DNA of 64,000 nt from an uncultured Lachnospiraceae bacterium (lineage in GTDB: Bacteria; Bacillota; Clostridia; Lachnospirales; Lachnospiraceae): assembly GCA_902770965.1 (NCBI GenBank), contig CACXUY010000014.1:1841-65840 (forward strand), given 5' to 3'. The position numbers were made by a program, and so were the translations under genes. Below, piece after piece: positions 33,201 to 49,527 of the stretch; position 1 is the first letter of the stretch; every line of letters starts with the position of its first letter. Below the pieces are notes generated by a model. The model did not search any database. It saw nothing but the letters and a program-made list of their open reading frames with translations, and was not told the DNA's origin.

Positions 33201-33275
33201 TAACTATTCAGCACCCCAGACTCGGGATGCTGCGCATCCTTCGTTGTGGTGCGGCGAGGGGTGCTGAATAATTAC
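33201..33275 (-). repeat. dispersed inverted-repeat element, family 1 (full copy, inverted orientation)
   Basis: TAACTATTCAGCACCCCAGACTCGGGATGCTGCGCATCCTTCGTTGTGGTGCGGCGAGGGGTGCTGAATAATTA. Its reverse complement is collinear with the copies at 14740 and 50835. Confidence 0.8.
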
Positions 33276-33316
33276 AGATAAGGATAATCCTGAACCCGTA
33301 TTGCTGAGGAGTCAAA

Positions 33317-34972
33317 ATGAGAGTCTGGAGATCAGATGGCAGCGGCGCGGCTTGCCTGACGGACGCGCTCTGTATAAACAAGGATATCATAAAAAAAAGA
33401 AGTAAAATGGACTGCTGCATTATTTCTGTCATCGGAGGTGGGGGAAAGACCAGCCTTCTATATCTTATGTCCAGGGAGCTTGCGGCAGATGGATTTCGGG
33501 TTGCCTTGACTACGACCACGCACATGATAATCCCGAAGACATTTCCATGGACCGAGAGTGTTGACGAAGCAGCGCGTATGCTTTCGAGAGAACCGGTGCT
33601 TGTGGCACATAAGGTTTCTTCGGATGCTTCAGGAACAGCTTCATCTTCGTCAAACAGATATGACTTTTCATCGATGGATAATGGTTCGGAAGATGCCGTG
33701 CACATAAAAGACGGCGCAGCTCACAAATATCCTTTAATAAAAGGAAAATGCACTGCGCTCACAGCTGAAGAGTTTGCTGTTTTGCGCAGGGAGGCCGACA
33801 TTATCCTGGTTGAAGCGGACGGAGCAAGGCAGCTTCCTATAAAGGCAGCTGTGGCACATGAGCCTGTCATCATGCCCGATTCTGATTATGTAATAGCTGT
33901 CGCAGGGATAGATGCCATTGGACAGCCGCTGCAAAAAGTATGTCATAGACCGTGGCTTGCGGCCGGTCGTTTTGGCGTACCCTTGGACATGGCAGTCACG
34001 GAAAAGATGTTGGCTGACCTTTTGACTGATCCTGTTATAGGGCAGATGAAGGGCATTGCGGGGCGTGGTAAATCTCAATCCGCGAGGCAGTTTCGTGTTC
34101 TTGTCAATAAGGCCGATGATGAGGGGAGAAGAAAAAGCGCGTTTGAGATCTGCCGCATGTTATCTTCGCGAGGTCTCATTTCCGCGGTATCGGCTCTGAG
34201 AGACAGGGTAGCTTTAATAGTCCTTGCGGCCGGTCAGGGGAAGCGGTTTACTCACAATAAAAATGATAGTGATGGAACAGCCGTAGTCCGTGTGGGAGAC
34301 CAAAGATATATAGATGAGACCGGAACGGAACATTTGAGACGATCTGATAAGAATACGATAAGTAAGAGTGAATCGGGGTATATCGGATATCCGGATAAGG
34401 AAGCGGTAAACAAGCTGGAATATTGTGTGAGAGGGGAGCCGATTTATGCGGGTTTGCTTCGTGCCGTGAGAGAACTCATATCAGGGTACGGAGACGAGAT
34501 CATTCATGAGAAGATATTGGTGACGCAGGAAGCCAGGCATGAGCTTCGCAGGGCCGCTGAGGCAGATGGGTTCAAAATTGTCATCAATCAGCAGCCATGG
34601 AAAGGAATATCGTCATCCATAAAGCTTGGGATAAATGCGGCTGAAGCTTCGGAGGCATATCTTTTCACCGTCTGCGATCAGCCGAAGCTCACGAGCAGGA
34701 CATTTTACAGGCTGATAGAAGCATATCAGTATGGCAGTGGCTCAATCGCGGCAGTGAGATCGATGGAGGCATTTGTGAATGCACAGGCGGCAGCCGGAGG
34801 AAACCCGAATATATTCTCGGTCCGCTATCGCAGCGATCTGTTGGCTCTTGAAGGCGACATGGGTGGAAAAAATATAATACGGAAGCACGAGACGGAAACG
34901 TCATACGTTGACGTGCCGTCAGAGGAGCTTTTTGATATAGACACGAAGGGAGATCTTTGGAGGTTTATATAA
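33317..34972 (+). CDS. yqeC: fusion of YqeC (selenium cofactor biosynthesis) and MocA/MobA-like NTP transferase (Mo-cofactor cytidylyltransferase)
   Basis: The N-terminal half has ISVIGGGGKTSLLY...VALTTTTHM (YqeC P-loop). The C-terminal half has LIVLAAGQGKRF...NKL and LFTVCDQP (MobA-like). Low-complexity inserts occur in both halves. ATG 33317 follows GAGGAG; ATG 33407 is an alternative start. Confidence 0.7.
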   Translation: MRVWRSDGSGAACLTDALCINKDIIKKRSKMDCCIISVIGGGGKTSLLYLMSRELAADGFRVALTTTTHMIIPKTFPWTESVDEAARMLSREPVLVAHKVSSDASGTASSSSNRYDFSSMDNGSEDAVHIKDGAAHKYPLIKGKCTALTAEEFAVLRREADIILVEADGARQLPIKAAVAHEPVIMPDSDYVIAVAGIDAIGQPLQKVCHRPWLAAGRFGVPLDMAVTEKMLADLLTDPVIGQMKGIAGRGKSQSARQFRVLVNKADDEGRRKSAFEICRMLSSRGLISAVSALRDRVALIVLAAGQGKRFTHNKNDSDGTAVVRVGDQRYIDETGTEHLRRSDKNTISKSESGYIGYPDKEAVNKLEYCVRGEPIYAGLLRAVRELISGYGDEIIHEKILVTQEARHELRRAAEADGFKIVINQQPWKGISSSIKLGINAAEASEAYLFTVCDQPKLTSRTFYRLIEAYQYGSGSIAAVRSMEAFVNAQAAAGGNPNIFSVRYRSDLLALEGDMGGKNIIRKHETETSYVDVPSEELFDIDTKGDLWRFI

Positions 34973-35193
34973 GAGAATGGTGAATGCTGTCGTCAGATGG
35001 CAGAACGTATTGTTCGGATTACATCGTTTCAGCCTCTGCTTTAACGCTGTTCCGGAATTGGTTGTTCAGAATGGATCGTTCGGTGTTATGACGTGCAAAA
35101 TGTGAACTATTACAGAAATACCAATATAATGACTCACGAAGAATACAGATAAAAACATAAAAACGAAGAAATATATAGAATTTAATAAAACGC

Positions 35194-35222
35194 TTGACAA
35201 TCAATATTGGAGTGTATATAAT
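35194..35222 (+). promoter_or_regulatory. consensus sigma70 promoter for the tRNA pair
   Basis: TTGACA at 35194-35199, a 17-nt spacer, and TATAAT at 35217-35222. The tRNA-Pro 5' end lies 22 nt downstream. Confidence 0.7.
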
Positions 35223-35243: not shown

Positions 35244-35317
35244 CGAGGTGTGGCTCAGCTTGGTAGAGCGCTGCGTTCGGGACGCAGAGGTCGCAGGTTC
35301 AAATCCTGTCGCCTCGA
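35244..35317 (+). tRNA. tRNA-Pro (anticodon CGG)
   Basis: I folded the cloverleaf by hand. The acceptor stem CGAGGTG pairs with CGCCTCG, the D arm is GCTCAGCTTGGTAGAGC, the anticodon stem-loop is CTGCG-TTCGGGA-CGCAG, and the T loop is GGTTCAAATCC. CCA is not encoded. Confidence 0.9.
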
Positions 35318-35368
35318 CTTGGACGCATTTCCTACTTGCGTCGAGACAATTTAATATTTATAACATGT

Positions 35369-35440
35369 GGTTCCTTGGTCAAGCGGTTAAGACGCCGCCC
35401 TCTCACGGCGGAAACAGGGGTTCGATTCCCCTAGGGACTA
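35369..35440 (+). tRNA. tRNA-Glu (anticodon CTC)
   Basis: The acceptor stem GGTTCCT pairs with AGGGACT (two G-U pairs). The anticodon stem-loop is CCGCC-CTCTCAC-GGCGG, and the T arm is AGGGGTTCGATTCCCCT. Confidence 0.85.
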
Positions 35441-35441
35441 T
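35419..35441 (+). repeat. left copy of 23-bp exact direct repeat (tRNA-Glu 3' end; att-like)
   Basis: GGTTCGATTCCCCTAGGGACTAT is identical to 47088-47110. Imperfect similarity continues for about 60 nt more, through a terminator-like hairpin, on both sides. Confidence 0.9.
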
Positions 35442-35999
35442 TGAAAAAGACCTCTCATCGAAGGTCTTCTTTTTTTGTTTTGGAAGGGGTGAATCAGGGA
35501 AACAGGGGAGTCAGGGTGAGACACGTGGACTCAGGCGAGTCCACATGACTCTTTTGAACATATGTAGTAGAAATATAGGATGGAAGCTGATTCGCGGATC
35601 ATAGACTGTTTTGCAAGCGGCGGTTTGGTTTTTGTTGATACTTATTCCCAGACGTAAGTGCGGGCTCTTTGCAAGGCGTATGTTTACATTAGGTTCATGG
35701 CATCTTATCATTTTAGTATGATATATTGTGTATGAATCACGACATCGCATGAATATATCTTGTAATTAGACGCTCTGTTTGCTATGTTTATTTGGTCAGA
35801 CACGTCGAGACTGATTTGTCAGTAACCCCCCATGCAGGATGCTGCCCCACCATGCATATAAGCCTGGGGGGGTAATGTCCATGCGGGGCATGCACACGGC
35901 CGCGCAGAGGAAGGTGCCGGCTGAATGCGACGCACGGTCGGCGCAGCTCGCCGCAAGCGGCGAGTTTATATAGTAATCATGAACAAGGAGACTTGGAAG

Positions 36000-37031
36000 A
36001 TGTCAAAAATAACACCCACTCCATATCAGGATATTTATTCCGAAATCAAAGATGCGCTATTACTTTCCCGTAACCAGGCCTATAGTGCGGTCAATTTTGC
36101 AATGGTTCAGGCATACTGGCACATTGGGCGAATCATCGTGGAGCACGAGCAGAACGGAAGCCTTCGTTCCGAATATGGAAAGGGTGTGTTGAAGGATGTG
36201 TCAGAACGGCTTCAACAGGAGTTTGGCGATGGGTTTTCTGTTCGGAATCTGCAACAGATGAAAAAGTTCTACGCTACTTTTCCAAATGCGAACGCACTGC
36301 GTACGCAATTGACCTGGACACATTATCGCGCTTTGCTTCGCGTGGAGGATGACATAGCGCGAAACTGGTATATAGAGGAGTGCATTAAATCCGGATGGTC
36401 GAGTCGACAGCTGGAGCGGCAGATTTCCACGTTATACTACGACCGACTTTTGGCTAGCAGGGACAAGTCTTCTGTAATTGCGGAAGCGGGAGAATTGATG
36501 AAACCGCTTGAGGCAGAGAGCTTTATCAAAGACCCTTACGTGTTGGACTTCCTCGATTTGAAAAACTACCCTGCCCTGCGCGAGTCCGATCTGGAACAGG
36601 CATTGATCGACAAATTGCAGGAGTTTCTGCTGGAGCTGGGACGCGGATTCTGCTTTATTGCAAGACAGAAACTCATGCGGTATGAAGACGAGGACTTCTA
36701 TCTTGATCTTGTCTTTTATCACAGCATTTTGAAATGCCACGTACTGATCGATCTGAAAATCGGAAAGCTGACACATGCCGACGTTGGCCAAATGGACAGT
36801 TACATCCGTATGTTTGATGCGCTATACAAAAACGATGACGACAATCCTACGATTGGGATTATCCTTTGTTCTCAGAAAAATGAGGCTATTGTTAAGTATT
36901 CGGTGTTGAACGATGCGAAACAAGTCTTTGCTTCTAAGTACCGTCTGACGTTGCCCACAGCAGAGGAATTGCAACGGGAGATTGAGGAAGAAAGACGAAA
37001 AATCGAGGAAAGAGGGGAATCGAGAAACTGA
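36000..37031 (+). CDS. YhcG-family (DUF1016) PD-(D/E)XK nuclease
   Basis: AVNFAMVQAYWHIGRIIVEHEQNG, LTWTHYRALL, GRGFCFIARQ and DLVFYHSILKCHVLIDLKIGK are typical of YhcG/DUF1016. ATG 36000 follows AAGGAG. Confidence 0.75.
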   Translation: MSKITPTPYQDIYSEIKDALLLSRNQAYSAVNFAMVQAYWHIGRIIVEHEQNGSLRSEYGKGVLKDVSERLQQEFGDGFSVRNLQQMKKFYATFPNANALRTQLTWTHYRALLRVEDDIARNWYIEECIKSGWSSRQLERQISTLYYDRLLASRDKSSVIAEAGELMKPLEAESFIKDPYVLDFLDLKNYPALRESDLEQALIDKLQEFLLELGRGFCFIARQKLMRYEDEDFYLDLVFYHSILKCHVLIDLKIGKLTHADVGQMDSYIRMFDALYKNDDDNPTIGIILCSQKNEAIVKYSVLNDAKQVFASKYRLTLPTAEELQREIEEERRKIEERGESRN

Positions 37032-37043
37032 GGAGGCACATAG

Positions 37044-37511
37044 AATCTCTCTGTGCTACGTTCCCGTGGCAGCTATACCGTCATCGACAAGATCACGGTC
37101 AGTCTGAATATCAAGCGCGATGTCTATGAGGCCGAGTTCTCCAATCTCGGTCTGAAGGCTGTGCCGATTTCTGACGAGTACCCGGATTTGGTGCATCGTG
37201 CAGTTGGATTACGAATACATCGAAGAGGATAAGAAGAACGGCAATCCCATTCAGATTCGGAAGCTGACTCCGATACAGCTTTCCTTGACTGTATGCACTG
37301 CTATATTCCCGGTTGGGAGATTCCAAAGTTTTGTCCGGAGCATTTCACGAATGACTACGGATTCATTACGGACTACCTCGCCGAATATATCCGGGAGCTG
37401 CGGAAGGAACAGTACGGCGATGCGCTGGCTCACTACTTCCACCTTGGAAAAAATCTGAATCAGCGCGACACCATAGCCGTGCGCAGGATAGTTGTATTAA
37501 ACGTCAAATAA
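37044..37511 (+). pseudogene. brxL: remnant of a brxL-type (BREX Lon-like protease, TIGR02688) gene
   Basis: Three frame-shifted pieces. They read VIDKITVSLNIKRDVYEAEFSNLGLKAV (N-terminal region), VQLDYEYIEED...PIQIRKLTPIQ, and DTAFLDCMHCYIPGWEIPKFCPEHFTNDYGFITDYLAEYIRELRK...LGKNLNQRDTIAVR (C-terminal region). The AAA+ core and both gene ends are missing. The match is from my memory of BrxL sequences. Confidence 0.5.
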
Positions 37512-37528
37512 ATAATAGGGGTGGCAAG

Positions 37529-39217
37529 ATGGAAGAAAAAACGGTTTACAGTTATCACACCTTTCTATATCCCTTTTTGTGGAATGACATAGATGGGAAT
37601 CACAGTATTGATGTCTTTGAGACAAAATTAAAACTGGAAAGTGCAGGCTGGTCTCAGGATGATATGGTTTCTAAAAAGAATGGTGAAATTAATCTGACCA
37701 GTGTTGTCAATAATGAGTCCCAAGATGAACAACGACTGGATTATCAGACATTTCAGTATTTTAATCCGGCTGCAAGAAAAGCTCTCTTTCGGGAAGATGG
37801 AGAAATAGTGCATGGTTGGAAGTATCGTTCGGGTGACGTACATAATAAAGCAGAATATAAGATATTTGAAAAAGGAAGCGATAATCCATATGTTTTGAAT
37901 ATAAATCATATCCGTCTCAGACTTTTCAATACCGGTGTAGGGATACTTGTGTTTGAGTTGGAGTACCCTATGCCGAACGAGGGAGTAAAAAAAGCACGGC
38001 AGGATATCAGAGCGATCAACGAGCTTGGTAGAAGAGTTTTTCCGGAGTTCCTTCCTGAACAGCCAGAAATTTTCATGGGAAGCCTTTTTGCCACGAGAAT
38101 AGAAATTGTTGTTGATGAGAATCATTTTGAAGAGAATTTGTACTGTCGTTCGGGGTTGCATGGAGAACAAAGCTACCTTAGAGATCCGTTGCATAAGCAG
38201 AGTTTTTTATTTACGCTTTTAGGCTATGATAGCAATAGTACAATCTCTATAACACCAGCTGTGGATGATAGGATGTTTGTCTGCTGCTGTATAATGGATC
38301 CGGATTATACAGAACATTTTTTATATCGTTCGTATCAGGATCCGTCTTTAGAGAAGACCGAATTATCGGAAGAAGAAAAGAAATTTAGTATGCAAAATAA
38401 GCAGCCTATGTTTCTGGATAACTGGGATGTTGGTACGGAATTATATGCATTGACCAATATTGATTATAAAGATAGCAGTTGTCAGAATCGGGTGATGCTG
38501 AACCAATACTTTGAAGATCAACTATATCTTAGGTGGACTGAGATCGGGTATAGCACGATTTATTCGGTGACAAACCATTCGATGATATGTTTGACCGGAG
38601 ATAGGAAATATGTTACTGCGCCAGTTGTTAATCCTTTCTTGATTGAATATATCCAACTTTGTATATTGGTTCTTGCTCAGAGGGCATCTTTGATAGCCTT
38701 TGATAGCAGAATTACAGAGGCTATTTCCAGGGATGACGAGAAAGAGATTATCACTGACAAGTTGTTAACATTATCCAAAGATTTTGCTAAGTTTCAGGGG
38801 CAAATCCTGATTCCTGAGGCTACTCCTCAAATACAAGGTATAGAGCTTTATGGAAAGCTGCAGAGGATGCTCTTTATTGAAAAACTTCAAAATAACGTAC
38901 TCAGTCAGATGAGCAGTCTTTCTGGAATGGCTCAATATGAGCAGGAACGAAGACAGCAAAAAATGGATAAAGATCTTGAAGAACAACAATTTAAGACAGG
39001 CTTATTCTTCAACGTGATAGCAGCGGTTACGATAGTTTCGGTTCTGATTGATTTATTTAATTATATAGTCTGGTTTGTTTCTCCTCATGATGATATATGT
39101 CTTCCATCATGGTGGATAATGATGATTATTGATGTTATATTGATTTTAACTGTCGCGGGAAGAAGTATAAGCTTGATCCATGATAAAAAGAAGAAGGAGA
39201 AAGAGAAGGATGAGTGA
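37529..39217 (+). CDS. corA: CorA-like membrane protein, candidate type III CRISPR accessory effector
   Basis: 562 aa. It has a large soluble N-terminal region and a predicted long helical segment (KLQNNVLSQMSSLSGMAQYEQERRQQKMDKDLEEQQ). Two TM helices sit at the extreme C-terminus (GLFFNVIAAVTIVSVLIDLFNYIVWFV; WWIMMIIDVILILTVAGRSISLI), followed by a KKKKEKEK tail. There is no GMN motif. Its stop overlaps the cmr1 start. Confidence 0.6.
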   Translation: MEEKTVYSYHTFLYPFLWNDIDGNHSIDVFETKLKLESAGWSQDDMVSKKNGEINLTSVVNNESQDEQRLDYQTFQYFNPAARKALFREDGEIVHGWKYRSGDVHNKAEYKIFEKGSDNPYVLNINHIRLRLFNTGVGILVFELEYPMPNEGVKKARQDIRAINELGRRVFPEFLPEQPEIFMGSLFATRIEIVVDENHFEENLYCRSGLHGEQSYLRDPLHKQSFLFTLLGYDSNSTISITPAVDDRMFVCCCIMDPDYTEHFLYRSYQDPSLEKTELSEEEKKFSMQNKQPMFLDNWDVGTELYALTNIDYKDSSCQNRVMLNQYFEDQLYLRWTEIGYSTIYSVTNHSMICLTGDRKYVTAPVVNPFLIEYIQLCILVLAQRASLIAFDSRITEAISRDDEKEIITDKLLTLSKDFAKFQGQILIPEATPQIQGIELYGKLQRMLFIEKLQNNVLSQMSSLSGMAQYEQERRQQKMDKDLEEQQFKTGLFFNVIAAVTIVSVLIDLFNYIVWFVSPHDDICLPSWWIMMIIDVILILTVAGRSISLIHDKKKKEKEKDE

Positions 39218-40556
39218 TCATCATAATTCACCATATTGTAGGTTAGTAGAACTCCGGCAGTATACTCCTTTATTACATTTTCAGGGAGATACAGAGGGAG
39301 CTTGTTTGCGTGCATCAGAAGTGAAGCCAAAGCTGGATCGTTTCGTGTGGGATTATCTTAACAGAAATCAAATCAGCATTCCGGAAAGTTGGCAGCTTAA
39401 GAACATGGATGAAGAGTCTCCATATGAACCAGCTTTACGATACAAGATGCGGTTTATGGGAAATATGAAGAAAAGAGAAGATAAGAAACATCTTCTTTAT
39501 TTTGCGCAGAACATGGACGGTACTTCAATAGCTTTAGAAAGCTTATCTAATACCAGGATGACGATTATTTCTCTGGTCAAAGATCGTTTGGGAACAGACT
39601 GTCCACTTTACAATAATAAATATTTGGAGAATCCCACTATCTGTGAGTTGATTGACGCATTACTTCCCGCATTCTTCTGTCTGCATTGTTTTGGAACAAG
39701 AAATGGAAAAGGCTTTGGAAGCTTTGAAATCGTAGGAAGTACTATAAGCGATGAGGAGATTGATTACTATAAAGAACGAGATTGTATGAAAGTATACCGT
39801 TTGTCATCCAGTCGAAATTCATATTCGGACATGAATTGTCTGGATGATATTTATGTCCTTTCGGGTATGATGAAGGGCGGTTTTAATCGTCCATATTATA
39901 AAGGAGATATTCAAAAATATCTATGGAGAGAGAACATAGGTTCAGAAAAATCGTTTATAAAGCAAGAGATATTTCCTAATGAGACGGTAAACAACACAGG
40001 AGAATCATTATTGGACTGGTATAATAATGATCTTTGTGGGGGAAGAAATCATAGACCTCAAAAGGTATATAAAAACAATCAATTTCTCCGCGCCATGTTA
40101 GGATTAACTGATCACTATGATTATTTTTTCTACAATAGAAATTTGAAAAAACGCGTAGTTAAAACGATATGGGTAAAGTCGAAAAACAGTGAAATAACAC
40201 GTTTTGCGAATCCTATCCGCTTTAAGCCATGTTCTGGAGGTTTTCGTATACTTGTATACAGGATACCGAATGCGATGTTAAACAAGTCGCAAGCATCGGA
40301 AGACAATGGTTTTGAGTTTTCTTTTAGTTCCAAGCAATATACGCTTTATACACCAGAATTTTTTGATCTTGTGGCTTTTATGCATTATTTCCTTTCTCCG
40401 TTTCACGATAATAAATCGAGAAAGTCGCATAATTGGGAAGCGTTAAAAGATAAAAGTTATCAGCTGTATTATGGCAAAAATAATAGCCAAACTCGGTTTT
40501 TTAATGATACCCTTGATAATCTCCGGATCGCGTATGGATGGGAGGAATCCATATGA
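39210..40556 (+). CDS. cmr1: type III-B RAMP protein Cmr1 (divergent, long)
   Basis: It is the first gene of a cmr1-cas10-cmr3-4-5-6 order. It has YTPLLHFQGD...LRASEVKPKLDRF, the G-rich loop FGTRNGKGFGSF, and RFANPIRFKP. ATG 39210 lies inside ATGAGTGA, overlapping the upstream stop. Confidence 0.6.
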   Translation: MSDHHNSPYCRLVELRQYTPLLHFQGDTEGACLRASEVKPKLDRFVWDYLNRNQISIPESWQLKNMDEESPYEPALRYKMRFMGNMKKREDKKHLLYFAQNMDGTSIALESLSNTRMTIISLVKDRLGTDCPLYNNKYLENPTICELIDALLPAFFCLHCFGTRNGKGFGSFEIVGSTISDEEIDYYKERDCMKVYRLSSSRNSYSDMNCLDDIYVLSGMMKGGFNRPYYKGDIQKYLWRENIGSEKSFIKQEIFPNETVNNTGESLLDWYNNDLCGGRNHRPQKVYKNNQFLRAMLGLTDHYDYFFYNRNLKKRVVKTIWVKSKNSEITRFANPIRFKPCSGGFRILVYRIPNAMLNKSQASEDNGFEFSFSSKQYTLYTPEFFDLVAFMHYFLSPFHDNKSRKSHNWEALKDKSYQLYYGKNNSQTRFFNDTLDNLRIAYGWEESI

Positions 40557-42199
40557 ATAAACAGTATGTAGGTGTTACCATAGGCCCCATTACCGATACA
40601 TTGATGCTCACTTCCTCGCCTGCCGGTCTTTGGGGTGCAAGTTATCTCTTCTCGTGGATTAGCCGTAGATTGATTCATTATTTAGTGGTTGATTATAAGG
40701 TTGAGCAGAGTCGATTTGTAGCCCCCTTTTTCTCAGTGAAGAATAACGAGATCTTTCTTCCTGAAGAAAATGATATCGATTATGAGGATATGTGGAAAAA
40801 GGGAATTGGCCTGTTTCATGATCGTATAATATTCTGTTCAGATAGTTTAACAAACCCACTTGAAATCGTTGCGAAGGCCAGAGAAGCTGTCATTTGCGAA
40901 CTCACAGAAGAAATAGCTAGAATAGAATCTAAAACAGAATCTACGACAAATAAGAAGGATATATATGAGTGGCTGGATGGTTATATACGGATTTATGCTG
41001 TTCAAAGGGAGAGCGCATCTCCACTACTAGATTTGGGTGCTGATCTAAGTGCAATGGAACTGGAACCTCATTTTTTCGGGCTTGAAAAGTATAATCATCT
41101 TTTGGGTATTTTTGAAAATATAATTCCTTGCGATGAAAATCATTCACATATGGAGCTGGGGATGAAAAATAAGCTGATGAAGCAATTCCTGCTCTCTCAT
41201 CGTGATGAAGATGCCTGGGTGCTTTATGATAATAATCATATGATAAAAGATTTACAGGATATCGCAGCGAATGGTGCAAATCCTGTAATGAAACACACTC
41301 AGTATTATGCTGTGCTGAAATCAGACGGAGACAGTATGAGCAAGATACTGGAAAACTTGATTGACGATGAAGAAGTCCGAACCTATAGTAAAAAATGCCT
41401 TGGTTTCTGCGCAAAGGCTGCTCAGCAGATATATAAATACGGCGGTGTGCCTCTTTATGCGGGTGGTGACGACCTGTTGGCTCTTTTGCCGTTAACCGGC
41501 ACGCACCCTGAAAATCATGAGAAATGTACCCTTTTTGGCTTAATAAATTATATACGCACATTGTTTAATGGGGTGTTTAAAGAGGATAGAGAAAGATTTA
41601 ATGGCATGCCGACGATATCTTTTGGTATCTCAATACAATTCTATAAAAGCCCGTTGTTTGAGGCACTGGAGCGAGCAGATGGATTACTGTATCGTGCTAA
41701 ATTGGGATTAAAAGATGCATGCTATCTGCATCTGCAAAAACATAGTGGACAATCTGTATTGTTTACCGAAGAACGTCTTAATTACGTTAATGAAGAAGGC
41801 GACAATTTGATTTCCGCTTTGGACAAGTTGTTAACAAATACGAGAATCGGTGATATCAATAATGACGATGCTGTTCTTTTTCTGTCTGGTCTAGGATTTA
41901 CATTGGAACAATATAAAAATTTGTTTTACCTGGCTATCGAAAAGACAAAGCGAACAGATGCGATTTTAGAGAATCTGTTCGCTAATCTCTTTAGCAATGT
42001 GGATCAAAAACAATTTGAACCTTATATAACCGAAATAAAAAAATTGACAGTGCAGCTCATCAGAAAGAATAGTGAGAATGAAGCAAAGGCAAAAAGAAGG
42101 CAGAATGAAGCAAATCAGGGCGAAGGAGTTATGTCTCAGCTTCAGGCCATAATTCGACTATTGCATTTTATGAGAGAGGGGGGAGCAGAGAAAGAATGA
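40553..42199 (+). CDS. cas10: Cas10/Cmr2 large subunit lacking the HD domain
   Basis: It starts directly with the Cmr2 block YVGVTIGPITDTL...GLWGASYLFSWI. It has YYAVLKSDGDSMSKIL, the cyclase motif LYAGGDDLLALLP (GGDD at 41462-41473), and ISFGISIQFYKSPLFEALERADGLLYRAK. It is only ~548 aa with no HD-type N-terminus. Confidence 0.8.
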   Translation: MNKQYVGVTIGPITDTLMLTSSPAGLWGASYLFSWISRRLIHYLVVDYKVEQSRFVAPFFSVKNNEIFLPEENDIDYEDMWKKGIGLFHDRIIFCSDSLTNPLEIVAKAREAVICELTEEIARIESKTESTTNKKDIYEWLDGYIRIYAVQRESASPLLDLGADLSAMELEPHFFGLEKYNHLLGIFENIIPCDENHSHMELGMKNKLMKQFLLSHRDEDAWVLYDNNHMIKDLQDIAANGANPVMKHTQYYAVLKSDGDSMSKILENLIDDEEVRTYSKKCLGFCAKAAQQIYKYGGVPLYAGGDDLLALLPLTGTHPENHEKCTLFGLINYIRTLFNGVFKEDRERFNGMPTISFGISIQFYKSPLFEALERADGLLYRAKLGLKDACYLHLQKHSGQSVLFTEERLNYVNEEGDNLISALDKLLTNTRIGDINNDDAVLFLSGLGFTLEQYKNLFYLAIEKTKRTDAILENLFANLFSNVDQKQFEPYITEIKKLTVQLIRKNSENEAKAKRRQNEANQGEGVMSQLQAIIRLLHFMREGGAEKE

Positions 42200-43368
42200 A
42201 ATATTGGAAAATAACCCTAAAACCTTTAGATGCTTATTTCCTGGGAGGGGAGCGAAATGTATTTTATCAAAACAATCCGGTACAACGTTCCGAACGAAGA
42301 CCTTATTTTATTCGTTCCAATCATATGATTTCACAGTCCGCTGCGTTTGGAGTACTACGATATCTAGGTATTCATAGCCCAAATGCTAATTATCGTTTGT
42401 CGTCTGAGGATATAAAAAATATAGGAGACAGAAGCTTTAGCATCACACGAAACCAACAAGGATACGGTCGCATATGCAGTATTTCCCCCGTGTTTCTATG
42501 TGATCAGGAAGGTAAACGGTACGTAGCTGCTCCGTGTAATCGTGTTAAGGCTGATTTTGAATGCTGCTATGATAAAGAGCATCCAAAGATGCCGTTTGTT
42601 TCCTTTGAAGCCTTCCGACGTGTAATAACCATGGATGGTACACGGTATTTACCATCTGAGTATAATGAGAAAAGGGCTTGTGACCCATCAGATCTGCTAT
42701 GCTTAGAAACAGGTGACGTCATATCATCCCCTTTTTCTACTCAGATACGTACGGGAATCAATAGAGAAAGTCAAAAGCTAAAGCAAAATGGAAATCTGTC
42801 GGACGATAATCCTAGTGGTTTCTTTAAGAAGGAATATATTGTTCTGGATAGAGACTATTCCTTCATGTTTTATGCTGAAACAGAAGATGGTTTTTTTATT
42901 CACCGTGATACAGTGGTTTACATAGGACAGGGAAGAACGCCTTTTTCTGCTCATGCAGAAGATGCACAGAAAAAGTGGGATATTGATTTACCGGTTTGTT
43001 GCCGACCGTCAGTTGGAGCAAAATGGGAAAGCGCAACGGTAATTTCTGACATGTTCTTTGATGGGCATATAAAAGAACTAAAAAGGCTGTGCTCATTGAT
43101 GATTTCATCTATCAGGGATCATCGGTGTATGGAAACAAATTACTCGGCAGAAAATGCGGGCAACCGATATAGTAAAAAGGAAGCATTAAAACTGATACCT
43201 GCCGGTAGTGTGTTTTTGTTTATGGGAGACGATAACGGTAAAGAACCGAAGGATCAGCTTTGTCATTTTCGAAATACGCTGATAAAAACCCGTTATTGGG
43301 ATAGCGCTTTGCGCGCCGGCTTCAATTATGTACTATATAGCGATATTCAACAGAATGGAGGACAATGA
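42196..43368 (+). CDS. cmr3: type III-B RAMP protein Cmr3
   Basis: ITLKPLDAYFLGGERNVF...SQSAAFGVLRY (Cmr3 N-terminal pattern), ISPVFL, and its position after cas10. It has an ATGA overlap with cas10. Confidence 0.7.
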   Translation: MKYWKITLKPLDAYFLGGERNVFYQNNPVQRSERRPYFIRSNHMISQSAAFGVLRYLGIHSPNANYRLSSEDIKNIGDRSFSITRNQQGYGRICSISPVFLCDQEGKRYVAAPCNRVKADFECCYDKEHPKMPFVSFEAFRRVITMDGTRYLPSEYNEKRACDPSDLLCLETGDVISSPFSTQIRTGINRESQKLKQNGNLSDDNPSGFFKKEYIVLDRDYSFMFYAETEDGFFIHRDTVVYIGQGRTPFSAHAEDAQKKWDIDLPVCCRPSVGAKWESATVISDMFFDGHIKELKRLCSLMISSIRDHRCMETNYSAENAGNRYSKKEALKLIPAGSVFLFMGDDNGKEPKDQLCHFRNTLIKTRYWDSALRAGFNYVLYSDIQQNGGQ

Positions 43369-44171
43369 TTATGTCAAATATACTGTATAGGTTAACATGC
43401 CTTACCAACCTTCATATGGGGAGCGGAGATATAAACTATGATGTGATAGACTTGGAAGTAGAGCGCGATCCGGTATTAATGGAGCCAACAATGAATGCTA
43501 GCGGTGTCAAAGGTGCCCTTCGGGATTATTGTAAGAAAACTATGTCTGATGATGATTTGCTGTTTGTATTTGGCGGCAAAGCAAAAAATGATGATGATAA
43601 CGGAGCTCAAAGAAATAATCAAGGGACACAGCAGGGGTTTTACAATTTTTTTTCCGGAGATATGTTGGCTCGTCCTATAAGAATATCTGAAGGAGAAGGG
43701 GCATATCTGCTTGCTACAACGCCAGATATTCTCAAAACGCTTTTGCGTAAATTACATGCGTTTGGGTTTTGCATCGGCTATAATGAGAATGATATTCCGG
43801 CTCTGCCGCAAGATGGTTCTGTACTATCCCCGGTAAATATCATAAGTGTTGAAGGACAAAAAGTTACAAATGGAACGTGCGCATATTTATCTGCTCTTCT
43901 TGGATCTGACCATTGGGTTTTGATGAGCAGTCAACAGTTAAGGGATATTGATCTGCCGGTTTTAGCTCACAATGTATTGGAGGATGGTATCAGCAAGAAT
44001 CTATGGTATGAGCAGGTTGTTCCTCATGAGAGTGTTTTCTTGCTGATCATATCAGGACTGGAAAACGACGATAGATTAAGTAAGACGTTAACTAAAAAGT
44101 GCATGGTTCAGTTTGGCGCGGGAGCTACCACTGGAAACGGTTATACCTTGATGGAACAACTGGAGGTATAA
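43365..44171 (+). CDS. cmr4: type III-B backbone RAMP Cmr4
   Basis: CLTNLHMGSGD...VIDLEVERDPV...ASGVKGALRDY (RAMP motif with candidate catalytic Asp) and the C-terminal G-rich loop FGAGATTGNGYT. Confidence 0.75.
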   Translation: MIMSNILYRLTCLTNLHMGSGDINYDVIDLEVERDPVLMEPTMNASGVKGALRDYCKKTMSDDDLLFVFGGKAKNDDDNGAQRNNQGTQQGFYNFFSGDMLARPIRISEGEGAYLLATTPDILKTLLRKLHAFGFCIGYNENDIPALPQDGSVLSPVNIISVEGQKVTNGTCAYLSALLGSDHWVLMSSQQLRDIDLPVLAHNVLEDGISKNLWYEQVVPHESVFLLIISGLENDDRLSKTLTKKCMVQFGAGATTGNGYTLMEQLEV

Positions 44172-44175
44172 ACAC

Positions 44176-44601
44176 ATGAACAAGAAATTAGTGAATGAAC
44201 TCATTCCTTTAGCATATCAGGAATTAGATTCAGTAGGTATTGCTCAGAACGGTGAGATCTCAAAGGGCTTTCGTGGCCAGATTGCTTCTTTTGGTGCAGC
44301 AATAGCCACAGGGTCTTTGCTGGCGGCATCGGCATTCTTTAATGATCAGGGCGGCTCTAAGAGTGAACGCCATAAGCTAATGGTGGCCATTAACAATATG
44401 TTGGCTTACAAGGATATGGAGAATGGTTGCTTAGTACAAAATCAAGGAAATACCTTATTTGATACTGTAAAAATATGGATGAAGGCTCACAATGGTTCTG
44501 ATAGGGAGATTAAAGAAAAAGTGCTTTCGTGTGCCATAGCCTTAAAACTTGCCATGAATCTTTACTCACTGAAACCAGAGAAAAAGAATAAAAAAGGCTA
44601 A
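44176..44601 (+). CDS. cmr5: type III-B small subunit Cmr5
   Basis: 141 aa and helical. FRGQIASFGAAIATGSLLAASAFF resembles the Cmr5 core. It lies between cmr4 and cmr6. Confidence 0.65.
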   Translation: MNKKLVNELIPLAYQELDSVGIAQNGEISKGFRGQIASFGAAIATGSLLAASAFFNDQGGSKSERHKLMVAINNMLAYKDMENGCLVQNQGNTLFDTVKIWMKAHNGSDREIKEKVLSCAIALKLAMNLYSLKPEKKNKKG

Positions 44602-44622
44602 TTTTGCGGAGGAGGATCATTC

Positions 44623-45540
44623 TTGAACCAGCATTATGAATTTTGGGTAAAATACTATGAGAGGTTGATAGAATCCGATACTGCATTTGCTGAAGCGCTT
44701 AATATTAATAATGAAAATTTGACGAAACGCATTTGGAAAACAGGAAATCGGGAAATCCTTCCGGGATGCAATGAAGAACCCTTCTCTGGCTGCAAACATC
44801 TACGATTGGAGGTGAATTATCCTGGCTTGTTAGTAGGCATAGGAAACGCTCATGACAGTGGGAAGAAATTTGAAGATAAAGACAAAACCGACAGGACAAA
44901 AAAGAAAGATAAGAAAAAGGATACACCAGAAGAAATAAAACTGGGAATACTATTAGACTCAGTAACCGGTTTGCCGTTTTTACCTGGAAGCATGTTGAAG
45001 GGGATATTGCGCTCGGCATTCTTATATAATGTTGATTATATTAAAGATTTGCTTCAGTATATAGATTCTTCTTTATTGCTGACCGCCGAACAGGTAGAAG
45101 AATTAGAACTGGATATTTTCGGACATCAACACCCTTGCCATAATTATGAAACCGATATCGAAGCAGGGACAGGAAGAGATGTTTTTTTTGATGTTTATCC
45201 AATTCAGCCGGATGGGAAAAGTCATCTGATTGGTATAGAAAACATCACATCTCACCGTGCTAAAAACCGTAAGCTCGATGGCTTAACAAAACTCAATCCA
45301 CTTACGCTGCTAAAGATTATGCCGGGAGTAGTGCTTTTGTTTAGGTTTTATCTGAATGATACTGATTTAAAAGATGGAATCAGGATTACAGCAAATCATA
45401 AATTAAATCTTTTTAAACAGATACTGCTTGATTTGGGCGCTGGTGCAAAGACAAATGTGGGCTTTGGCGTGTTGACAGATACGAAAAACCCTGAGGAAAC
45501 GGACAAGTATTATTATCTGGAAGAAATGCACAGAGATTAA
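44623..45540 (+). CDS. cmr6: type III-B RAMP protein Cmr6
   Basis: GLPFLPGSMLKGILRSAF, DIFGH, DVFFDVYP and the G-rich loop LGAGAKTNVGFGVL. The TTG start is 7 nt after GGAGGAGG. Confidence 0.75.
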   Translation: MNQHYEFWVKYYERLIESDTAFAEALNINNENLTKRIWKTGNREILPGCNEEPFSGCKHLRLEVNYPGLLVGIGNAHDSGKKFEDKDKTDRTKKKDKKKDTPEEIKLGILLDSVTGLPFLPGSMLKGILRSAFLYNVDYIKDLLQYIDSSLLLTAEQVEELELDIFGHQHPCHNYETDIEAGTGRDVFFDVYPIQPDGKSHLIGIENITSHRAKNRKLDGLTKLNPLTLLKIMPGVVLLFRFYLNDTDLKDGIRITANHKLNLFKQILLDLGAGAKTNVGFGVLTDTKNPEETDKYYYLEEMHRD

Positions 45541-45564
45541 GAACTAAAATCATCATTTAGTAGA

Positions 45565-45594
45565 AACCTCCTGGTCCATCTCAGGAGGTTTTTT
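45565..45594. terminator. bidirectional terminator between cmr6 and the convergent DUF3791 gene
   Basis: AACCTCCTG (45565-45573) pairs with CAGGAGGTT (45582-45590), then TTTT. The same hairpin recurs at ~48962-48990. Confidence 0.65.
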
Positions 45595-45799
45595 CTGATA
45601 CTCTCTTATAATAATCCCTAAAATAATCCGGTCCCTCTGCCCAAAGTGCTGAATCGAAATCGAGCAGGCATTCGTAAGCTTTTGATTCAAGGACTTCTTT
45701 TCTGATTTCGTCAATTGGTTTTCCACTTTCGGCGGCCATATCTTCAATAGCAAGGGCTAATGTCAGAGCAGCGCATGTATTCATTGTTTCATATGACAT
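45581..45799 (-). CDS. DUF3791-like small protein
   Basis: 72 aa. It lies downstream of, and overlaps, a DUF3990-like gene, which is the triad arrangement I recall from Clostridia. Confidence 0.5.
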   Translation of the reverse strand: MSYETMNTCAALTLALAIEDMAAESGKPIDEIRKEVLESKAYECLLDFDSALWAEGPDYFRDYYKRVSEKTS

Positions 45800-46367
45800 A
45801 TTTCCTCGCCTCCTGAAACATCAGACAGCTTATAACTTTTTCAGTCAAGAAGCAGAACTGATCTTCAAGCTTATCAGGCAAAAGCCTTTTGATTGTATCA
45901 TTTATCGCTTCGTCAGATTCTATATCTCCATACAATTCGCCAAGATAAGCTGTGATGGTTGTATTTGTTTTATCATTTGCAACTTTTCCGATAATGATTT
46001 CCGCACTAAATATTCTGGGGTCAATTCCTGGTTTTAGTTGCGTGGCAAGATGTTCTCGTCTGTTCTGCGCGATAAACCAGAGCCATTCTTTATTAGTTGT
46101 AGGAAATTCATAAAAATCTATTCCCTCTTTCGGTGCTTTGAATCTAAAGGATAAAACAAAACCAAAGTCTTGGTCCATCGGCAAATCGCCAGTATTTACT
46201 GCTTTTCGTATGGATGATTTAATAAAAAGCCGGGCTTGATTTAGGTTCGAAGTCAGATAAAAGCCCTTACCAAAATCCTTACCTTTATTGCACATCGAAA
46301 GGTCGATTGTCTCAACAGGGGCATAGCTTCCGTGAAACAGGAGCATGCCGTCTCTTAACTTGGTCAT
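45789..46367 (-). CDS. DUF3990-domain protein
   Basis: MTKLRDGMLLFHGSYAPVETIDLS...GKDFGKGFYLTS is a typical DUF3990 N-terminus. It has an ATGA overlap with the upstream DUF3791 gene. Confidence 0.6.
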   Translation of the reverse strand: MTKLRDGMLLFHGSYAPVETIDLSMCNKGKDFGKGFYLTSNLNQARLFIKSSIRKAVNTGDLPMDQDFGFVLSFRFKAPKEGIDFYEFPTTNKEWLWFIAQNRREHLATQLKPGIDPRIFSAEIIIGKVANDKTNTTITAYLGELYGDIESDEAINDTIKRLLPDKLEDQFCFLTEKVISCLMFQEARKYVI

Positions 46368-46576
46368 ACACATGCCCCCTTTTTCTGTAGAATGCGAACG
46401 ATACCATTGAGAATATACTCGTCACCGTTCATGTGAAGAACATCATAGCACTCTTCGATATATTTCCAGATGCCATAGTTTTCAAATAAGCGATTAGCGT
46501 CCGCAGGTTTCAAATTAAATTTACGAACGAAATCACTAAAAACCCTTGCTTCCATAAACAGTATCTCATTAACCAT
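46364..46576 (-). CDS. DUF3791-like small protein
   Basis: The start is MVNEILFMEARVFSDFVRKF, preceded by GGAGGA. The ORF-track N-terminal extension has no support. Confidence 0.55.
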   Translation of the reverse strand: MVNEILFMEARVFSDFVRKFNLKPADANRLFENYGIWKYIEECYDVLHMNGDEYILNGIVRILQKKGACV

Positions 46577-47087
46577 GACCGTATCCTCCGTAGAAAAGCA
46601 TAACATATTTATCTGATAACATAAAGAACGATTTTTACTGTTTACTAGAAGGTATTCCGGTATGAAGGGAAAAAAGGTGGTTTTCAGCGGGATCAAAGGA
46701 TCCTGCCGGTTTTCCGGAGTTGACCGTACCGCTCTTGCGTTGCTCGCCGTAGGCGAGTTGCTCCACATTGGAAAAAATAGCAGCTTTAGATTTGGACGTT
46801 ATACCATGCTGAGTCCTCGAGACTAGCTGGGCGAATCAAGGGCGAGCGGACGGCAGGGACTGTTCTGTTGTCCGCTTTTAAATCTGATACAAGATACAGG
46901 ATGTCCGCAAATAACACCAGAATATTGGTGGATTCTTGGTGAACATGGTGCCAATATATCAATAAAAAAACTAATCAGGTTAGAAAAAGTATAGCATGAC
47001 CGTGCAAAACATGGGCAGAAATTACTATATAGTTTGACAAATCGATATACAGAACAAAATAATTCAAAATTGTTCTGCAAATGCAAT

Positions 47088-47110
47088 GGTTCGATTCCCC
47101 TAGGGACTAT
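47088..47110 (+). repeat. right copy of 23-bp exact direct repeat (partial tRNA-Glu 3' end; att-like)
   Basis: GGTTCGATTCCCCTAGGGACTAT has no tRNA 5' half upstream. It is followed by a hairpin (AAAAAGACCTCTCAGCAGAGGTCTTTTT) similar to the one after the intact tRNA-Glu. Confidence 0.9.
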
Positions 47111-47388
47111 CTAAAGAAAAAGACCTCTCAGCAGAGGTCTTTTTCATTTTCGGAGGAGGGGTGAGTAATCCGGGCTCCGGGTACCAGCAATCCGCAAATG
47201 GATATCGATATACCGGAGTATGATATCGGGCGATTCAAAACATTCAGTCCGCCTAAGCGTACTTTTTATTCGCCAATGATACCATCCTGACATAGAATGA
47301 TGCCAGGCAATCAGTGCCTGCATTCAATCCTGAATCGCCTTATCAAGGATTGAGTGTTGAAAATAGAGGAAGTTCACATGTACCGGCA

Positions 47389-47417
47389 TTGACATTATAC
47401 CGGTTGACCGTTATAAT
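47389..47417 (+). promoter_or_regulatory. consensus sigma70 promoter upstream of the HTH/NTase pair
   Basis: TTGACA at 47389-47394, a 17-nt spacer, and TATAAT at 47412-47417. TACCGG(N)TTGAC direct repeats overlap the promoter and may be an operator. Confidence 0.6.
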
Positions 47418-47438
47418 GTTATGGAAGGCAGGTGAAGA

Positions 47439-48011
47439 ATGATGACCATCCGAGAGAAATTAAAAGATAAAAACATGTCTGTATACCGGCTTGCCAAAGC
47501 TAGCGAGCTTCCCTATGCGACTGTAAACGATATTTGCAGCGGCAAAGCGCAGCTGGAAAAATGCAGCGCCGAAACGATCTATAAGATTGCCAAAGCACTG
47601 GACGTTCCCATGGAGGAACTGCTTGCCCCCTGCTTCCTCAAACGCAGCAGTTTTGAAAACTTCAAAAGCAATATCTGCCACCGAGTCAAAGAGCTGGGCG
47701 ATATAGACTTTCTTATCGAAACGCTGGAGAGCCATGACATCCGGACCTATTATGAGCGGAAATGGTATCCTGAAAGCCTTTACCTCCTTGCCATGCTGGA
47801 CTATATCAGCCGGGAAAATGATGTTCCCCTTGTCAGCGAATACGACGACATCAGGCGGTGCAGGCTGGAAAAACCGGTTTATCCGGCCAGTCTCCGGGCT
47901 GTTTCAGCGGCGGCCAGAAGCGACGCCGCGCTGAAAGAGGCAGAGAAAACGGCGATCCCGGAGTTTATGCGGTTTAACATTATAGAAAGCGAAGTGCGAA
48001 ATGTCATCTGA
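47439..48011 (+). CDS. XRE-family HTH protein (putative antitoxin/regulator)
   Basis: The N-terminal HTH reads MSVYRLAKASELPYATVNDICSGK...TIYKIAKALDVPMEELL. The stop overlaps the next start by 11 nt. Confidence 0.65.
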   Translation: MMTIREKLKDKNMSVYRLAKASELPYATVNDICSGKAQLEKCSAETIYKIAKALDVPMEELLAPCFLKRSSFENFKSNICHRVKELGDIDFLIETLESHDIRTYYERKWYPESLYLLAMLDYISRENDVPLVSEYDDIRRCRLEKPVYPASLRAVSAAARSDAALKEAEKTAIPEFMRFNIIESEVRNVI

Positions 48012-48774
48012 ACGCAGCGTTGAGTTTACAAAAGACAATATTGACATCTACTTGAAAGAGGTTGCGAAGGAATACCGGAAACAGGTTGGGAAGGGAATGC
48101 CCGCCGAACTGATCCTGATCGGCGGTGCTTCCGTCCTGATCAATTACGGATTCAGAAATATGACCACCGATATAGACGCCTTGATCCGGGCGGCTTCCAG
48201 CATGAAGGATGCGATTAGCAGGGTTGGTGATCGTTTTGGCCTTCCCACCGGCTGGCTGAACGCCGACTTCAAGAACACGGACTCCTACACCCCGAAGCTC
48301 GAAGAGTTTTCCTCCTATTACAGAACCTATTCCAACGTACTGTCAATCCGTACCGTGAAAGCGGAATATCTGATTGCCATGAAACTGCGATCCGGCAGAC
48401 AGTATAAGAGTGACCTGTCCGATGTGCTGGGCATTCTGGCGGAACATGAAAAAAGAGGAACGCCTATCACGATGGAGCAGATACGAAAAGCCGTGACTGA
48501 CCTGTACGGCGACTGGACATCTCTTTCGGATGTGTCTCAGGCGTTTATAGAAAATGTCATGGCGGACGGACGGTTTGAACAGCTTTATGTGCAGACGGCC
48601 CAGGGTGAGAAGGAAACGAAGGAACTTCTGATCCGGTTTGAGAAGGACTATCCGGGCGTAACGAAGGAGTCCAATGTGGACGCTATCGTCGGTAATCTTC
48701 AAAAGAAAGCGGATAAAGCTTCCATCCTTGCCCAGCTTCGGCAAAAGAAGTCCAAAGGCATGGAGACAATTTAG
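48001..48774 (+). CDS. Pol-beta-fold nucleotidyltransferase-like protein (DUF6036/AbiEii-like), putative toxin
   Basis: LILIGGASVLINYGFRNMTTDIDAL matches the GG/GS-x(n)-DxD nucleotidyltransferase pattern. AEYLIAMKLRSGRQYKSDLSD is typical of this family. It is translationally coupled to the HTH gene. Confidence 0.55.
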   Translation: MSSERSVEFTKDNIDIYLKEVAKEYRKQVGKGMPAELILIGGASVLINYGFRNMTTDIDALIRAASSMKDAISRVGDRFGLPTGWLNADFKNTDSYTPKLEEFSSYYRTYSNVLSIRTVKAEYLIAMKLRSGRQYKSDLSDVLGILAEHEKRGTPITMEQIRKAVTDLYGDWTSLSDVSQAFIENVMADGRFEQLYVQTAQGEKETKELLIRFEKDYPGVTKESNVDAIVGNLQKKADKASILAQLRQKKSKGMETI

Positions 48775-48957
48775 GAGAAGAACCCGCGAAAGAGGAATGA
48801 CCGGGAAAGATAACCGAATATTGAGCTTGATACTAGATCGGGCCGGGAATGTTCAGACCGGAATATTCAGAGGGGTGACTCACCCCTCCTCGAGATATTT
48901 TATGATGCCGTCTGCGGAGATCTTGGCCTGGCAGACGATGAAAGATTTCTTTAAGCT

Positions 48958-49527
48958 GAAAAACCTCCTGATCCATCTCAGGAGGTTTTTTCTGATACCT
49001 TCTTATAGTAATCTCTAAAATAATCCGGTCCTTCTGCCCAAAGCGCTGAATCGAAATCGAGCAGGCATTCGTAAGCTTTTGATTCAAGAACGTCTTTTCT
49101 GATTTAGTCAATTGTTTTTCCGCTTTCGGCAGCCATGTCTTCAATAGCAAGGGTTAATGTCAAAGCAGCGCATGTGCTCATTGCGTCATATGACATATTT
49201 TTTCGCCTCCTCAAACATCAGACAACTGATAGCCTTTTCAGTCAAGAAGCAGAACTGATCTTCAAGCTTATCAGGCAAAAACCTTTTAATTGTAGTTTCC
49301 GTGAAACAGGAGCATGCCGTCTCTTAACTTGGTCATACACATGCCCCCTTTTTCTGTAGAATGCGAACGATATCATTGAGAATATACTCGTCACAGTTCA
49401 TGTGAAGAACATCATAGCACTCTTCGATATATTTCCAGATGCCATAGTTTTCAAATAAGCGATTAGCGTCCGTAGGTTTCAAATTAAACTTACGAACAAA
49501 ATCACTAAAAACCCTTGCTTCCATTTC
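48958..49527 (-). pseudogene. decayed second copy of the DUF3791-DUF3990-DUF3791 cassette
   Basis: It is collinear with 45561-46560 at high identity. The DUF3990 body is deleted, with a junction near 49295 leaving only MTKLRDGMLLFHG. The distal DUF3791 is disrupted, while the proximal DUF3791 (49333-49524) is nearly intact. Confidence 0.75.

Follow-up and report, generated by a model that had tools for sequence, protein, structure and literature searches.

How does an 11.7-kb block of DNA that codes for no recombinase come to lie exactly between two copies of the end of a tRNA gene? The question is raised by a 64,000-nucleotide stretch (the window; GenBank assembly GCA_902770965.1, contig CACXUY010000014.1, positions 1,841 to 65,840) from an uncultured Lachnospiraceae bacterium, in which positions 35442-47087 are bracketed by a direct repeat of the 3' end of tRNA-Glu(CTC). 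An earlier interpretation made from the letters of the window (the sequence-only reading) had proposed a tRNA-Glu-targeted island that had lost its integrase, or was mobilised in trans, and is now fixed. We compared the locus with same-species contigs that were retrieved from gut metagenomes by exact-protein look-ups of the flanking genes and whose flanks were 98-100% identical. We consider it likely that 35442-47087 is a mosaic, foreign defence island that arose by a tyrosine-integrase-type insertion at tRNA-Glu(CTC) and now belongs to the cis-mobilizable element (CIME) type, in which the att sites are kept while the integration and transfer genes are absent (PMC5704250).

Boundaries of the island and its empty site

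The target gene belongs to a two-tRNA unit with a consensus promoter at 35194-35222, of which tRNA-Pro(CGG) (35244-35318, plus strand; ARAGORN and Rfam) is the first gene. The intact tRNA-Glu(CTC), which forms attL, was placed on the plus strand at 35368-35441 by ARAGORN and at 35369-35440 by Rfam (63.6 bits). The 23-bp repeat GGTTCGATTCCCCTAGGGACTAT occurs on this strand in two exact copies, at 35419-35441 and 47088-47110. No third copy was present in the window when up to 3 mismatches were allowed, and 100 dinucleotide-preserving shuffles yielded none. Read from the cloverleaf, the repeat is the last 22 nt of tRNA-Glu plus 1 nt and comprises two T-stem bases, the T loop, the 3' T stem, the 3' acceptor strand, the discriminator and the extra base. 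The right copy (attR) has no tRNA 5' half before it, and neither ARAGORN nor Rfam found a tRNA near 47 kb. At the gathering threshold, the two tRNAs were the only Rfam matches in the window, and the arms beside the repeats matched no known RNA. From copy to copy the island measures 11,669 bp.

Each repeat copy is followed by a terminator. The tRNA-proximal arm of the island (P' arm, 35442-35500, plus strand) contains a terminator hairpin at 35447-35468 and the motif GGGGTGAATCAGGG, and it is homologous to the sequence that follows tRNA-Glu in strains with an empty site. Behind the second copy, the hairpin at 47121-47145 (plus strand) is the one that stands directly after tRNA-Glu in those strains. 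About 50 nt can be aligned after both copies, covering the hairpin, a T run and GGGGTGA at ~79% similarity, and the local alignment score of 45 compares with 18.4 ± 2.4 in dinucleotide shuffles (z = 11). The second copy is preceded by the right arm of the island (P arm, 46922-47087, plus strand). This arm also holds a near-consensus, promoter-like TTGACA-18-AATAAT (47034-47063, plus strand) that faces the partial tRNA copy and its terminator and could give rise to a short transcript of ~75 nt. The possibility that the right arm is a CRISPR leader with a degenerate repeat was rejected, as no repeat evidence was found.

The composition of the interval is foreign to its surroundings. Its guanine-plus-cytosine (GC) content is 40.3%, versus 51.4% on both flanks, and the lowest value among 58 other 11.6-kb windows was 42.9%. 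The tetranucleotide distance of the island to the backbone was about 3 times the backbone value. The island is itself a mosaic, with 47% GC in its left part (YhcG and BrxL) versus 38.6% from corA to cmr6.

An empty site was found in six same-species contigs (L009, L011, L012, L013, L014, and L017). In each of them TCTAAAGAAAAAGACCTCTCAGCAGAGG, the sequence that the window has to the right of the second repeat, begins directly after the complete tRNA-Glu, and a gene pair coding for a helix-turn-helix (HTH) protein and a DUF6036 protein comes next. The attB of all six equals the left part of attL, the core and the right part of attR, which is what conservative site-specific recombination predicts, and the island is therefore a real insertion. 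It follows that the island is polymorphic within the species. A neighbour search with the ATP-grasp gene of the right flank returned 80 loci (60-72% identity) in genome contigs, from metagenome-assembled genomes of rumen and gut Clostridia; none had tRNA-Glu near the ATP-grasp gene, and because synteny is already lost there this result is uninformative. What looked like a split hydF in contigs with the island proved to be a run of N in a scaffold.

On these points the sequence-only reading held up well. The exact repeat of the tRNA 3' end, its make-up of 22 tRNA nucleotides plus one, the missing 5' half at the second copy and the AT-richer interior were all as it had described, and both the GC and the k-mer profile differed strongly from the flanks. 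The similarity that it had seen after the two copies was real and covered about 50 nt. A tRNA-Glu-targeted insertion is now backed by the six empty-site contigs and by independent tyrosine-integrase elements that use the same core. The two findings that would speak against such an island, namely the same gene content in relatives without the repeat or a composition indistinguishable from the flanks, were not made, because empty sites were present and the composition differed strongly.

Recombination at one core

We further recorded every core occurrence in the same-species loci fetched. The contigs compared are metagenome assemblies, many of which break at the core or at a repeated gene triad (described below), and junction types that co-occur in one sample (e.g. 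L003 and L021) are not assignable to one genome. Three contexts were found to the left of the core (the tRNA, the island P arm, and the P arm of a second element that we call E) and four to its right (the island P' arm, the right side of attB, the E P' arm, and a P' arm of a type first seen in contig L002). The tRNA-Glu was joined to the island P' arm in 5 contigs, to the right side of attB (the empty site) in 6, and to the L002-type P' arm in 2. The P arm of the island or of a different island, L015, was joined to the right side of attB in 7 contigs, and the E P arm was joined to the island P' arm in 5 and to the E P' arm in 1 (2 if L132 is included). These six junction combinations share one 20-bp core, and every breakpoint falls inside TTCGATTCCCCTAGGGACTA. 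Arms that are combined in this way at a single core are the hallmark of site-specific recombination.

Two of the occupants point to integrases that act at this core. Contigs L002 and L003 match the window at 99.96-99.98% identity as far as 35440, and directly behind ...GGGACTA they continue with a different sequence, CTTTTTTGTGCCC. A minus-strand open reading frame (ORF), convergent with the tRNA, has its 3' end about 175 nt beyond this point, and its last 70 residues correspond to positions 101-170 of the 172 in Phage_integrase (HDLRH...Y). The integrase is truncated, since unrelated sequence that is rich in GC makes up the N-terminal portion of the ORF. Homologues of the preserved piece are phage-type integrases, and one of them (54% identical) lies at a prophage end with the same architecture, convergent with a tRNA-Met 27 nt away. 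A third occupant, the AT-rich island L015, shares the 166-nt right arm and the junction with our island; all L015-type contigs break within ~230 nt upstream of a 279-aa gene. The right arm was also seen at 85% identity in a context without a tRNA, in L119 (1591-1790) and L120. There the match breaks off at ..ATG[A/G]TTC, within what would be the core, and a gene for an AAA_16 ATPase comes next.

The second integrase-coding occupant is E. In contigs L110, L112, L116, L117, and L130, the sequence before the left end of the island is not the tRNA but ...AATGAAGCA + TTCGATTCCCCTAGGGACTAT, the right arm of E joined to the core; in these strains E therefore separates the island from tRNA-Glu. Roughly half of the contigs that carry the island have this tandem, all of them from strains other than that of the window. 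The tandem is present in metagenomes ERZ27279897, ERZ914838, ERZ1029110, ERZ1029116, and ERZ28613550. The wording "now fixed" in the sequence-only reading was thus too strong for an island that is polymorphic and is so often found next to an integrase-coding element. E codes for an ArdC-N antirestriction protein, an HTH (190 aa)/DUF6036 pair, a MobL relaxase, a small ribbon-helix-helix (RHH) protein, a ParM-like actin, SSB, a 146-aa AT-hook protein and a tyrosine integrase (RRGEICAL...HDLRH...Y), and on this gene content it can be described as a plasmid-like mobilizable element. E was seen at 10441-11858 of L124, in L132 and in the left parts of L110 and L117, and its copy in L110 also includes the reverse transcriptase of a group II intron. 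Two different samples, one with L124/L131 and the other with L132, show the E right arm, the core, CTTTTTTATTGCCC and the minus-strand tyrosine integrase in one contiguous stretch. This stretch is the attP of E, derived from a circle or from a tandem copy.

The exact boundaries, the empty site, the use of the core by integrase elements and the tandems can be read directly from the assembled contigs, and together they suggest that an integrase catalysed the insertion of the island. In the mechanism that we propose, a tyrosine integrase would recombine the island, in the form of a circle, with tRNA-Glu(CTC), and the crossover would fall inside the T-loop/3'-acceptor part of the gene. The P' arm of the island would bring a replacement tRNA 3' end and terminator, and the tRNA would therefore remain intact and functional at attL. 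The original 3' end and terminator would be pushed 11.7 kb downstream and left as the 23-bp copy at attR. Any later movement would need an integrase from another element, for which E is the obvious candidate, and mobilisation of the island by E is conceivable on this basis.

Cargo, decay and competing explanations

The gene content of the island was checked by Pfam, PADLOC, and NCBIfam. At its left end, a YhcG/DUF1016 PD-(D/E)xK nuclease (35925-37031, plus strand; Pfam, and PADLOC candidate defence family PDC-S02) is followed by a 72-aa BrxL fragment (37293-37511, plus strand) that covers positions 354-420 of the 680 in the PADLOC profile. A 28-bp deletion (GAAATACGACCGGCTGCTCTGCGGGGGC) at 37186, in the region of the BrxL remnant, is private to the window, and all other island-bearing contigs that could be compared across this position have kept the sequence. 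The remainder of the plus strand is dominated by a complete and uninterrupted set of corA and cmr genes, which code for a CRISPR-associated CorA-like membrane effector of 562 aa (37529-39217; PADLOC CorA, E = 5e-65), Cmr1 (39180-40556; PADLOC, E = 7e-57), Cas10/Cmr2 without an HD domain but with the GGDD cyclase motif kept (40538-42199), Cmr3 (42196-43368; PADLOC), Cmr4 (43365-44171; PADLOC and NCBIfam profile matches), Cmr5 (44176-44601; PADLOC), and Cmr6 (44623-45540; PADLOC and NCBIfam profile matches). On the minus strand follows an intact gene triad (45581-46576), composed of a 72-aa ORF (45581-45799), DUF3990 (45789-46373) and DUF3791 (46364-46576). Behind it lies a 54-codon 3' fragment of cas6 (46662-46826, plus strand) whose match to Cas6 profiles is limited to their final 47 positions (PADLOC Cas6 positions 248-294 of 296, E = 2.5e-10).

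The search with Cas10 gave no relative among the GTDB representative genomes, and the nearest relative outside the island's own cluster was 49% identical. Gene order in the relatives is corA-cmr1-cas10-cmr3-4-5-6, and in one of them (L123) a cas6 gene with the Pfam Cas6 domain comes directly after cmr6. The triad of the island therefore occupies the place of the 5' part of cas6. CorA-associated type III-B systems signal through S-adenosylmethionine-AMP (SAM-AMP), as described for Bacteroides fragilis, and usually have an NrN, DEDD or SAM-AMP-lyase partner; when the B. fragilis system was tested in E. coli, CorA and NrN were both needed for immunity (PMC10600005). The island resembles these systems in the set and order of its genes (corA-cmr1-cas10-cmr3-cmr4-cmr5-cmr6) and in a Cas10 that has GGDD and no HD domain. 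It differs from them in having a 54-codon stump as its only cas6, and in that the 64-kb window contains no CRISPR array, no cas1 or cas2 and, among its ORFs, no NrN, DEDD or SAM-AMP-lyase gene. The CRISPR-Cas locus is therefore incomplete, as it has no intact cas6, no adaptation genes, no partner that degrades SAM-AMP and no array within the 64 kb, although an array may lie elsewhere in the genome. We flag it as an effector-only CorA type III-B module.

Neither Pfam nor PADLOC matched a tyrosine, serine or DDE recombinase, or a relaxase or conjugation gene, in 35442-47087, and tblastn with ~100 integrases of the locally relevant clade gave no match inside the island. The absence of a recombinase ORF and the defence-type or orphan nature of the genes had both been recognized in the sequence-only reading; the cas6 fragment, the mosaic GC, and, to the right of the island, a second triad and an integrase tail had escaped it.

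The DNA between the second repeat and the ATP-grasp gene (47111-49603) is found in all strains and has an intermediate GC content of 46.7%. Outside the bracket but present in all strains, the HTH (190 aa) and DUF6036 nucleotidyltransferase pair (47439-48774, plus strand) shares 53% and 57% identity with its counterpart in E. Next comes a decayed second copy of the triad (48961-49524, minus strand), which is 91-97% identical to 45564-46555 and has lost 430 bp within DUF3990. Homology between the copies coincides almost precisely with the three genes, beginning at the start codon and ending at the terminator. Between the decayed DUF3791 start, 9 nt off, and the ATP-grasp stop codon (49604), tblastn detected a 21-codon 3' remnant of a tyrosine integrase of the clade that targets tRNA-Glu (49537-49599, minus strand, ..TDKSTATDWPVNAHFSALMG*). 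It is 71% identical to the C-terminal tail of the L002-type integrase (E = 1e-4 to 1e-5 with 6 queries) and is also present in the empty-site strains. From these remains, 47111-49603 is probably the stump of an older integrated element that targeted tRNA-Glu. The right flank is accordingly not pure backbone, and the locus appears to have been hit repeatedly.

How the island came to be without an integrase is a separate matter. Its internal damage, namely the cas6 stump, the BrxL stump and the mosaic GC, marks it as eroded, as far as gene remnants can tell. We infer that an integrase of its own may have been lost rather than never present, and that the island may descend from an autonomous element, but no remnant of an integrase or relaxase was found inside it. 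This missing remnant is the first of several findings that weigh against the history proposed here. The junction expected of an island circle (right arm, core and left arm, which would read GCAAATGCAATGG + core + TTGAAAAAGACC) was seen in no locus fetched, and Joint Genome Institute (JGI) metagenome contigs gave no match to the right arm joined to the core, a pattern to be expected from attR as well as from a circle. The E integrase is split into two overlapping ORFs in 5/5 contigs that carry it, and it may be defective, to judge from this frame structure. The right arm of the island and the arm of E were not significantly similar (z = 0.5), and recognition of the island arm by the E integrase is therefore hypothetical. 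Lastly, the 3.2 kb to the left of the tRNAs (32005-35165, a 347-aa ORF and yqeC-mobA) are only 84-91% identical between occupied and empty-site strains, and part of the history may be homologous import instead of integration in this lineage. Scans of viral contigs for the island attR junction and for the L002-type attL junction likewise gave no match. A MAFFT alignment of the island right arm with the E arm had looked plausible, but was rejected as evidence of relationship on the same z value.

Among the alternatives, the one that survives best is that the island never coded for an integrase and belongs to a hitch-hiking family with att arms alone (satellite or 'att-only'), which is served by an integrase in trans. 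Such a family would account for the missing integrase remnant, and the 166-nt right arm that the island has in common with L015, a different AT-rich island, hints at a conserved arm whose cargo can be exchanged. A possible helper is also at hand, in that the integrase-coding episome E has the same core target and co-occurs with the island. The arms of the island and of E are nevertheless unrelated, the shared arm exists in a context that is not an att site (L119 and L120), and the L015 contigs stop before their left end, so that L015 may carry an integrase. Given an island that is visibly eroded, loss is at least equally likely, and we regard an origin without an integrase as unlikely.

A very unlikely alternative, in our estimate, is homologous import from a diverged relative of a block that starts at ~32005 and takes in yqeC, the tRNAs and the AT-rich genes. 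Its left crossover would lie in conserved flank and the right end would have been joined illegitimately inside the tRNA-Glu of the recipient; the second repeat would then be the recipient's tRNA stump with its terminator, and the similarity after the repeats would be orthology. The divergent 3.2 kb fit this proposal, as the remaining flanks of the empty-site strains are 98-99.7% identical to the window. YqeC has 600-612 aa in the divergent allele versus 551 aa in the window-type allele. Allele and occupancy also go together in the sampled contigs: the window-type allele was found in 5/5 contigs with an occupied left junction (L001, L002, L003, L004, and L111) and the divergent allele in 6/6 empty-site contigs, with no occupied site in the other allele. 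The ~50 nt of post-repeat similarity are near the expectation for orthologous terminators at that divergence. What illegitimate joining does not explain is the position of the right junction, which lies at the 5' edge of the T loop, no more than 2 nt from that of E, an unlikely coincidence. Moreover, L002 and L003 share the window-type left flank (99.98%) but have a different occupant at the same core, and therefore turnover at the core has taken place within the lineage of the window-type allele.

The least likely rival, an ancestral tandem of tRNA-Glu genes with their own terminators, between which foreign DNA accumulated while the second gene lost its 5' half, would explain the homologous terminators after both copies, and homologous deletion between the direct repeats would recreate the observed 'empty' sequence, but we consider it extremely improbable, given that the second gene is truncated at the crossover region of the integrases of other elements, that the interval is compositionally foreign, that the 23 nt left of the second tRNA are preceded by an unrelated AT-rich arm common to another island, and that Cas10 has no match in GTDB representative genomes.

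A more far-reaching view is that the island is no dead relic but a passenger that moves in cis with E. E would insert at the tRNA end of the island, the composite would be bounded by the tRNA junction and the distal att site, and E and island would be excised and mobilised as a unit that spreads the array-less CorA-Cmr genes. No junction of a composite E + island circle, which would read GCAAATGCAATGG + core + CTTTTTT[AG]T, was present in the fetched loci, and we rate this view as distinctly unlikely. If true, it would mean the spread of an effector-only CorA-Cmr module that draws crRNAs (CRISPR RNAs) from the recipient's own arrays.

Other features of the window and comparison with known systems

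Several features of the window lie apart from the island. Palindromic intergenic repeats (CAGCAYCCCGAGTYTGGGGTGCTGAATAGTT and longer forms of up to 81 nt) occur at 9377, 14781, 33131, 33203, 50877, and 52629; the family has no Rfam match. An inverted palindrome pair (33199-33279 and 50830-50910) brackets the region that comprises yqeC, the tRNAs, the island and ATP-grasp. Positions 1-13000 form a second low-GC block (42.7%) with a tetranucleotide distance like that of the island. Its genes code for an HTH-Peptidase_M78 protein, a BlaR1-like M56 peptidase, a fragment of an IS630-like DDE_3 transposase and an Rce1-like protease, and no tRNA or integrase was seen in it. Tandem repeats were located at 63779-63985 (23 nt, ~7 copies), 56829-56972 (35 nt, ~4), and 53343-53468 (12 nt, ~7).

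With regard to known systems, tRNA-targeted islands and prophages whose tyrosine integrases cross over in the T loop fall under Williams' sublocation classes. Our island has several properties of a tRNA-targeted island, including direct repeats of the tRNA 3' end, an unoccupied site in relatives and a deviant composition. Like T-loop-crossover islands, it has an identity block from the T loop to the tRNA 3' end and a regenerated tRNA, and integrases of the local clade are convergent with the tRNA. It differs in that no integrase gene of its own lies by an att site, and in that the homology block reaches ~50 nt past the tRNA into the terminator.

An integrative and mobilizable element (IME) combines its own integrase with a relaxase or an oriT (origin of transfer). 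E, with an integrase and a MobL relaxase, can be placed in this class, and 35442-47087, which has none of these genes, cannot. What the island does have is attL and attR, no integration or transfer genes, and tandem accretion in other strains, which is the combination found in CIMEs. Nothing here is categorically new and current understanding is not overturned. The locus is instead a clean, population-level example of a tRNA hotspot in uncultured gut Clostridia, with unusually complete natural intermediates at one att site, and it shows that defence islands can shed mobility genes yet keep intact att sites beside active elements.

CIMEs and tandem accretion have been described for the ICESt1/ICESt3-related islands of Streptococcus thermophilus and for streptococcal IMEs, together with a three-step path of integration, decay, and accretion of a new element at the att site with the gene end (PMC5704250). 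The present case differs from the S. thermophilus CIMEs in that no remnant links the island to a parent integrative and conjugative element (ICE) or IME, that the island arms are unrelated to those of the co-resident E, and that the host is one of the uncultured gut Clostridia. It is like them in that attL and attR derive from the 3' end of the target gene, that integration and transfer genes are absent, and that in other strains the island stands in tandem with an integrase element at the att site with the intact gene end. Across the strains compared here, the first and third steps of that path can be recognized in the junctions.

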